Below the pieces are notes generated by a model, which saw only the letters and a program-made list of their open reading frames with translations, did not search any database and was not told the origin of the DNA. A stretch of DNA of 64,000 nucleotides from NCBI RefSeq assembly GCF_902713615.1, contig NC_052149.1, forward strand, positions 157,976,379 to 158,040,378. The letters run 5' to 3'. Origin of the DNA: Scyliorhinus canicula (lineage: Eukaryota). The position numbers and the translations under genes were made by a program. Below, one piece after another: positions 39,891 to 41,860 of the stretch (the stretch's first letter is position 1; the number at the start of each line of letters is the position of its first letter).

Positions 39891-40244
39891 TAGGGGCATG
39901 ATTTTGGCCAATTATGGAAAAACAGGGGATTCATAACTTCATCCGGCCAACCTATTAAACATGCTAAATTGGTTTTAAATTTACTAGTTGCTGTTCAGCT
40001 TCCCAGCAAGATAGCAGCTTTAAAGTGTGAAGCGCATACTACCACAGTTGATGAAGTCTCATGTGGCAATAGATTTGCTGATAAAATAGCAAAGGAATTG
40101 GCTCTCAAACAGCAGCCACAATTGCAAGCTGCTGCTGTTGAACCTCCATCCACCATAACAGAACCAAAGTTAAAACAGGCACAGGAGCATGCCTCCCCAC
40201 AGGAGCATCGCTCTTGGCTAAAAGCAGGTTACTATCAAGACAAT

Positions 40245-41181
40245 TTTGATAGGTGGATAAGGGCTTTGGAAATAGACCAAACGTTTGAAGCTCTCAGAGA
40301 ATTTATACTTTTGGAGGAGTTTAAAAATTCAATTCCTGATGTAGTGAGAACTCACGTGGAAGAACAAAGGGTTAAAACTGCGAGATTAGCAGCAGAAATG
40401 GCAGATGAATATGAACTAGTTCATAAATCAAAGCTTGGTTTCCGACATCAGTTTCAGCCTGTGAGGGATAGAAACTGGGGACATGAGAGATACTCAAGTG
40501 GTAAAGGTAAAGGTGATCTGATGGGAGATGATAAGGAGAGTGTACCTCAGATTAAAAAAGAAATCCAGGAGGTTGGAAAAGAAATGAAAAGTTTCAAATG
40601 TTTTCACTGTAATAAACTAGGCCATATAAAATCACAGTGTTGGTGGTTGAAGAAAAGCAGTGTGGTAACACAGGATAAGACAGTGGGGTTTGTTAAAGTG
40701 GTTAAGGAAAGCCCAAGTGAAGCAAAGGAGGTGCAAAAGATTGTACAGCCTGATCAAGAGGTGATTGATAAGAAGGTGCCAGATCCTTTTAAAGAATTTA
40801 CTTGTGTGGGTAAAGTTTACTCATGTGTATCAGGAGGACCAGGTAAAGAAGTCACAATTTTAAGAGATACGGGAGCTAGTCAATCTTTGATGGTAAGAGA
40901 TGAGGAGTAATGTAGTCTGGGAAGAATGTTGCCAGAAAAGGTGGTAATATGTGGAATTCAGGGTGAGAGGAGTAGCGTTCCATTATATAAGGTAAGGTTG
41001 GAAAGTTCAGCAAAGAGTGGTGAAGTGGTAGTAGGAGTAATAGAGAAACTATCTTGTCCAGGAATACAGTTTATCTTGGGTAAGGATATAACTGGATCGC
41101 AGGTGGGAGTGATGCCTACTGTGGTTGATAAGCCAGTGGAAAATCAGACAACTGAAGTGTTGAAGGATGAATATCCTGGGA
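40245..41181 (+). mobile_element. Gypsy (Gmr1/SCAN-type) gag-protease segment embedded in ERV-B pol
   Basis: ILLEEFKNSIPDVVRTHVEEQ..TARLAAEMADEY (SCAN-like); CFHCNKLGHIKSQC; ILRDTGASQSL; FILGKD; no LTR or TSD; replaces the segment equivalent to ERV-A ~21243-21657. Confidence 0.85.
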
Positions 41182-41860
41182 TTGTGATACCAATGGGTAG
41201 TAACAGTGACAGGGGAACTCATTTCACTAGCAAATTCACCAAAGCCCTAACAGAAGCCATGGGATTTGATTGGAAATTGCATATATCATATCAACCATAA
41301 TCCTCAGGAATGGTGGTAAGGGCGGATGGAATAATTAAACCTGCAGTTACAAAAGTGTGTCAACAAAATGGGCTGCTATGGCCAGATGCCATACCCATAG
41401 TAATGTGTGCCCTGAGAAATCAGAGAAATCGTAATACGGGTTTAACCCTGTATGAGATATTAATGGAACATTCCATGACAACTGGAACTAAACCCCCAAT
41501 GACCCCAGAGGCAGTACCCTTAATATGGGCAGATGAGGCATCACTAAAATATGCCCAGGCCACGTGTGAAACCGCTGAAAAAAAAAAACAAAAAAAAAAA
41601 CATGAAAAGGTGCAAAAGGCAAAAGGCTCAGATGCATCCAAAAGAGGGAAATACACACTCTTTAAACCTGGAGATCAAGTGTATGTGAAAGCACTAAACA
41701 AAGATTATTTTTCTCCTAGGTGGAATGGACCCTACCAAGTGCTGCTAACAACCCGAACAGCCGTTAAAGAAAAAGAAAAGCCAGATTGGATCCACGCAAC
41801 TTGTGTAAACTACATCATATGGAACTTTGAGAGTACTAGCGAAAAGCTGACCTGAAGAGA

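Follow-up and report, generated by a model that had tools for sequence, protein, structure and literature searches.

Several described retroelements combine parts of different origin. Among the closest are the recKoRVs, which are recombinants of KoRV and PhER (PMC6112702). As far as the available part of that source describes them, they resemble the element reported here in joining a retrovirus to a dissimilar retroelement, in having microhomology at some breakpoints, in their target site duplications (TSDs) and varied LTRs, and in having been remobilized though disabled; co-packaging is proposed there too. Harlequin and other mosaic HERVs are similar in that their structure is ascribed to co-packaging and polymerase jumps, with proliferation after recombination, but the parts listed in the accessible text are all of ERV type and none is Gypsy (PMC4724089). 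In LTR-mediated retroposition, as outlined in the accessible portion of the source, an internal, partial piece in sense orientation likewise takes the place of a segment of an LTR element, with short shared sequences at the boundaries, and the resulting chimera passes through further cycles in non-autonomous form (PMC5131818). Zebrafish ERV-E4.7b.16-DanRer is also a class I element, with a gag domain that groups with Gypsy, and this is ascribed to recombination or transposition. In contrast to the present case, the available text treats it as a single element mentioned in passing, without breakpoints, donor or copy number (PMC8672886). Gmr1-like Gypsy elements have the domain order SCAN, PR, IN, RT, according to the part of the source available (10.1101/2025.03.03.638093).

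Measured against what these sources describe in their available parts, the provirus analyzed here is distinct. In contrast to recKoRV, the donated sequence is a coding piece from a Gmr1-type Gypsy element, its recipient appears to have been already dead, and a nested series of deletions followed one capture. Unlike the products of LTR-mediated retroposition, the captured RNA would come from a retroelement instead of a host gene's mRNA, env is present in the carrier, and copies number more than 50. Compared with Gmr1-like elements themselves, only an internal piece of 0.94-1.27 kb is present, within an ERV. By analogy, the chimera would work like recKoRV or Harlequin but cross the retrovirus and Gypsy families. 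A survey of titles and the openings of abstracts found no published description of this element or of a breakpoint-resolved ERV-Gypsy family. We consider it probable (roughly 0.7) that this is a non-autonomous class I ERV lineage which gained a Gmr1-type Gypsy piece from co-packaged Gypsy RNA through a double template switch, and which spread in trans to more than 50 loci with that piece as a passenger.

The provirus and its two parents

The window, i.e. the whole 64,000-nt stretch of Scyliorhinus canicula DNA that was analyzed, contains the chimeric provirus (ERV-B; plus strand, 34391-43607) and a non-chimeric relative (ERV-A). ERV-B has 397-nt LTRs that are 97.5% alike and a 5-nt TSD. The features are as follows.

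15971..26092, minus strand: ERV-A, a non-chimeric relative; it has the same RT lesions and also the gag-pro deletion, and its LTR type differs (about 70%)
34391..34787, plus strand: 5' LTR of ERV-B (TG..CA), 97.5% alike to the 3' LTR, with the 5-nt TSD just before it
34788..37600, plus strand: broken leader, gag and ERV protease; the end of gag and the read-through site were placed by eye
37900..39710, plus strand: reverse transcriptase and tether, inactive, with an 18-nt deletion near 38522 and a 59-nt frameshifting deletion near 38597
39711..39896, no strand assigned: SINE-like repeat within RNase H, present in the ERV-B copy only
39897..40244, plus strand: ERV RNase H and integrase start, with a 3-nt microhomology to the Gypsy donor at the end
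40245..41183, plus strand: captured gag-pro piece of Gmr1-type Gypsy origin, with SCAN positions 31-88, a CCHC knuckle at 40599 and a protease DTG motif near 40863
41184..41855, plus strand: ERV integrase C-terminal half, joined in frame by what appears to be a secondary deletion (short form)
41864..43140, plus strand: env, broken; a sister copy matches the TLV_coat family; bounds set by eye
43211..43607, plus strand: 3' LTR of ERV-B, with the TSD directly after it

Both proviruses carry further insertions. The leader, gag and protease region of ERV-B holds a SINE-like insertion at 36366-36741 with a 93-nt duplication, and this flanking duplication (window 36273-36834) is unusually long. ERV-A is interrupted at 16607-21035 by a LINE-like insertion in its integrase; the insertion is on the minus strand, is GC-rich and has an endonuclease ORF, and a similar ORF is present in locus L094.

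Alignment confirms the original prediction that the match between ERV-B and ERV-A (minus strand, 22007-21657) extends to 40244 and resumes from 41182. The sequence in between has, as was also anticipated, no LTR or TSD of its own and is an internal Gypsy piece. ERV-A retains 421 nt between the two junction points, which agrees with the predicted absence of about 0.4 kb of integrase from ERV-B; however, most of this loss is due to later deletions, and one of the lesions is also found in non-chimeric copies. The ORFs do lie in one frame (39894-41855), and two TAA codons (40908 and 41298) are its sole interruptions. Since both positions are read through in other copies, the stops of ERV-B represent later decay.

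Pfam detects RNase_H, SCAN, zf-CCHC, rve and MLVIN_C in this frame. Only SCAN (30.2 bits, cut-off 27) and MLVIN_C (46 bits, at the integrase C-terminus) exceed their own cut-offs, with zf-CCHC and rve falling below theirs. The insert alone matches SCAN over profile positions 31-88 of 90 and scores 26.2 bits, short of the cut-off; the first 30 positions are lacking. The score for the whole frame passes because upstream ERV integrase residues (window 40182-40244) are borrowed, which stretches the match from position 31 back to 14. Their likeness to the profile is probably a matter of chance, though they could partly stand in for the missing SCAN helix. The cassette had been predicted to contain SCAN, CCHC and protease modules; its gag-pro content stands, but its SCAN domain is partial.

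The insert belongs to an abundant repeat family with 2,866 candidate matches, of which the best 40 were scored and show 92-95% identity. Twenty donor copies were fetched, and these are LTR elements of 5.5-6.5 kb wherever both LTRs were seen (LTR pairs were found in L074, L075, L078 and L082). An ORF of the donor copy L087 contains SCAN (63-152), H2C2 (529-579) and rve (601-696) domains, and RVT_1 lies downstream in others, L075 among them. The best named match of the donor RT is Ty3-G Gag-Pol (E 5.7e-51), compared with about 1e-9 for MLV-type RT. The SCAN-PR-IN-RT order, the Ty3-like RT and the possession of LTRs all point to a Gmr1-type Gypsy element as the donor, in line with the original prediction. 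Among named proteins, those closest to the insert come from the catshark Scyliorhinus torazame. Elsewhere, the segment 13027-13592 of the window aligns with sequence in or next to the donor copies L008, L011 and L012, and is possibly a solo LTR or leader fragment of the donor family.

The recipient is ordered LTR-gag-pro-RT-RH-IN-env-LTR, with a TLV-type env and an MLV-type IN C-terminus. In the sister copy L101, RT matches that of MLV (E 5.9e-30) ahead of foamy virus (7.6e-15) and HIV-2 (2.6e-9); the env of another sister copy, L095, matches TLV_coat with 52 bits. As its RT resembles that of MLV most and its env belongs to the TLV_coat family, the recipient can be assigned by sequence similarity, at class level, to the class I (gamma/epsilon-like) ERVs, as expected.

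Copies, junction forms and a defective backbone

The 5' junction is spanned by 40 of the 40 genome matches scored and the window's 3' junction by 34 of 40. A 24-nt pattern across the 5' junction gave 52 genome matches, compared with 0 for the control; one fetched match (L147) is non-ERV. Overall, an identical 5' junction was verified at 54 loci (41 + 13), or 53 once L145 and L146 are merged. The latter two (C12:78385233 and C12:82362670) have identical layouts 4 Mb apart and are likely to be a segmental or assembly duplicate. The chimeric loci are spread over about 20 contigs with about 7% mutual divergence, and the two LTRs of a copy agree at about 93-97.5%. TSDs were identified at ERV-B, L052 (5/5) and L144 (4/5), among the five copies with both ends found. 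There are at least four LTR types, comprising three tree groups in addition to L042, L045 and L065, which match neither reference.

A search for the junctions in several proviruses had been proposed, and the same 5' junction at 53 loci means that the chimera replicated. The original prediction had also allowed for a misassembled or single-copy junction. No raw reads bridging the window's junctions were among the output listed for the mapping on L041, but copies of this junction number more than 50, lie on about 20 contigs, and are accompanied by distinct LTR types and by TSDs. It is thus exceedingly improbable that misassembly or a single post-integration repair event produced it.

Identity of the 5' junction across loci argues for a single origin of the chimera. 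The phylogeny of the insert was rejected as proof of single capture: the tree is star-like and uninformative, and chimeric copies do not separate from donors in it as a clade of their own. Mean insert identity is 93.2% among chimeric copies and 93.0% to donors. Two further observations concern the arrangement of copies. In L041 (651-9000), two units of the chimeric family stand in tandem with one LTR in common. A tandem duplication of about 60 nt is present near the 5' junction in L072, L095, L108 and L110, i.e. in one chimeric and three non-chimeric copies, which is a sign of recombination between the two lineages or of recurrence.

Three forms of the 3' junction occur among the chimeric copies. 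In the long form, about 1,266 nt of Gypsy donor stand in place of about 82 nt of ERV integrase; the Gypsy piece reaches the start of the Gypsy integrase and rejoins ERV integrase 82 nt past the 5' junction. The middle form is missing part of the long-form sequence. The short form, to which the window copy belongs, has lost a further 217 nt across an imperfect, codon-registered 27-nt likeness between both parents. Among the 53 loci, 31 are short, eight middle and nine long-type (including L063, scored as such solely because its Gypsy sequence passes the middle breakpoint), and five have no form call. Pattern matching across the genome likewise gives 31 short-form and nine long-form matches. Because the forms are nested, we infer that the deletions proceeded from long to short. 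The long and middle forms are out of the ERV integrase frame and the short form is in frame. On this comparison, the window copy appears to be a derived form whose in-frame 3' junction arose by secondary deletion. An additional long-form copy, L153, has its 3' junction in register but still carries the integrase lesion; given this copy, the original 3' junction may have been in frame.

The ERV backbone is extensively damaged. Relative to the RT-intact sister L101, chimeric copies are missing 18 nt that hold the first catalytic-Asp motif, and 59 nt further on. The first lesion is present in 39/39 scorable chimeric copies (14 unscorable). The second, a frameshift located about 1.6 kb before the insert, is present in 32/32 (21 unscorable). 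An apparently intact RT score for L037 was discarded, as an unrelated insertion sits there. RT-intact relatives are present in the genome; among 42 intact-RT segments compared by eye (best 40 of 184 candidates scored), none lies near a chimeric junction. The first integrase Asp is also absent from the long and middle forms. The deletion that removes it has 68 genome matches, and of 20 unlinked ones fetched 17 have the parental junction and none is chimeric. An out-of-frame gag-pro deletion is found in 26 of the 53 chimeric loci (10 retain the sequence, 17 unscorable), and a 1-nt env frameshift is common to 26/35 scorable chimeric copies.

The lesions of RT, integrase and gag-pro extend beyond the chimera. 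Non-chimeric copies also have RT lesions (the first in 7/10 scorable), and the gag-pro deletion has spread among them without the insert. As lesions in RT and elsewhere are common to non-chimeric copies, we infer that the backbone was dead before capture; lesions first and capture second is the simplest order, though recombination could blur it. The same breakpoints at many loci, together with shared enzyme-inactivating lesions, make this a non-autonomous recombinant provirus. Since its own enzymes are dead and it integrated with TSDs, they would have been supplied in trans.

Capture of the Gypsy piece

In the mechanism we favor, a defective ERV RNA and a Gypsy RNA would be co-packaged in a virus particle. 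During reverse transcription, RT would jump from ERV RNA to Gypsy RNA and back at short shared sequences, placing the piece in an already dead backbone. Enzymes of intact relatives would then mobilize the chimera in trans. The insert would shrink by successive deletions from long to short form, and repeated recombination among family RNAs would reshuffle gag-pro, LTR and env around it. The insert is in sense orientation, internal and LTR-free, with a short shared sequence at both ends, and so fits the model set out in the available part of PMC5131818. Microhomology with the donor amounts to 3 nt at the 5' end. At the 3' end it is 3 to 6 nt, according to how the sequences are registered, and matches this short are a weak sign of template switching. 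Splicing was rejected as an origin of the junctions, since neither the ERV nor the Gypsy flank of the 5' junction shows a GT/AG pattern.

Another explanation differs only in the capture step. A whole Gypsy element may have integrated as DNA into the proviral integrase, with later deletions taking both Gypsy LTRs and flanking ERV sequence. The ERV lineage is very deletion-prone, the donor family is abundant (2,866 candidates), the junction microhomologies are short, and loss of an internal poly(A) signal would presumably be favored. However, this route needs two separate deletions, both ending inside the Gypsy coding region and together costing only 82 nt of ERV. In none of the 53 copies is there any remnant of a Gypsy LTR or primer site, or any Gypsy sequence preceding the 5' junction. 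Intermediates of this route are absent although those of the later deletions survive. We therefore regard nested DNA insertion as unlikely, and prefer template switching between co-packaged RNAs.

Variation within the family is also consistent with frequent recombination, as variant sharing cuts across forms and backbones. L037, L048, L050 and L052 share a cluster of variants in insert codons 221-277 that is absent from the 20 donors. The cluster may stem from a different Gypsy copy, in which case exchange between Gypsy and ERV would have happened repeatedly.

Coding capacity, selection and implications

The original prediction envisaged a polyprotein with a second capsid-CTD, NC and protease module. 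A stronger version would have the short form selected: a fusion of RNase H, SCAN, NC, protease and integrase C-terminus, made from spliced or internally initiated RNA, replaces the lost capsid-CTD, NC and protease and constitutes a working Retroviridae-Metaviridae hybrid. In its favor, the insert's domains are of the same kinds as those removed by the shared gag-pro deletion (26/36 scorable copies), and the in-frame short form is the commonest (31/53). Shared 12-nt (nine copies) and 42-nt (three copies) deletions in the insert keep the frame, and a mild synonymous excess is confined to short-form copies.

The structure of the copies nevertheless conflicts with this proposal. A frameshift in pol precedes the insert by about 1.6 kb in all scorable copies (32/32), SCAN is truncated by its first 30 profile positions, and the gag-pro deletion to be compensated has spread without the insert too. 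An out-of-frame 293-nt deletion common to three loci removes the protease motif. No unbroken insert is present among the short-form copies of the first 41 loci.

A protein search with the fused RNase H-SCAN product, covering proteins of 185-592 aa, returned five matches among 978 candidates, and the two best are Gypsy-only catshark proteins (81-83%). Two DNA and two RNA runs were mapped on L041: the reads are mostly Gypsy over the insert, the ERV parts are shallow and covered on both strands, and 0 of the 15 joints listed (80 more unlisted) have GT..AG ends, a pattern compatible with expression as well as with its absence. In the same locus, at 5926-6813, the Gypsy donor family is well represented in the RNA runs X21 and X22, with a strong strand bias in X21; the species of these runs may differ from that of the window.

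The suggested comparison of dN/dS across chimeric copies yielded no significant purifying selection. Singleton variants are neutral everywhere (omega 0.84-1.26). For shared non-CpG variants at thresholds of 2, 3 and 4 copies, omega is 0.84, 0.67 and 0.59 in the insert (p 0.13-0.29) and 0.80, 0.85 and 0.48 in the dead RT C-terminal part, such that the insert falls within the range of dead sequence (0.59-0.84 compared with 0.48-0.85). In short-form copies, omega is 0.59-0.67 for the insert (best p 0.051; single cells p 0.028 and 0.046) and 0.26-0.57 for the adjoining RNase H-integrase stretch (p about 0.035), all p values being uncorrected across dozens of tests. The long and middle forms have omega 1.3-1.9 and no synonymous excess. 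A far stronger excess is seen in env (omega about 0.44, p below 0.001) though it is frameshifted in most copies. Tracts swapped in from selected relatives can therefore create such a signal, including that of the short form. Taken with the structural evidence, selection for a working hybrid is highly doubtful. It is likely that no hybrid protein is made from the chimera and that the insert is an untranslated passenger, as in the template-switch reading that we prefer.

The two in-frame junctions of the window copy had initially been thought to suggest selection. That argument fails: the short-form 3' junction is apparently secondary, and two other forms are out of frame. The case is a caution, as one copy's in-frame junction, created by secondary deletion, was no evidence of selection.

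This family documents at breakpoint resolution the passage of Gypsy sequence into a vertebrate retrovirus and its subsequent spread, with donor, recipient and intermediates in one genome. In addition, its more than 50 copies make it possible to measure how deletions and recombinations followed one another in a non-autonomous ERV. If template switching is the true mechanism, Gypsy RNA would have entered retroviral particles, a step needed for domain exchange between the families.
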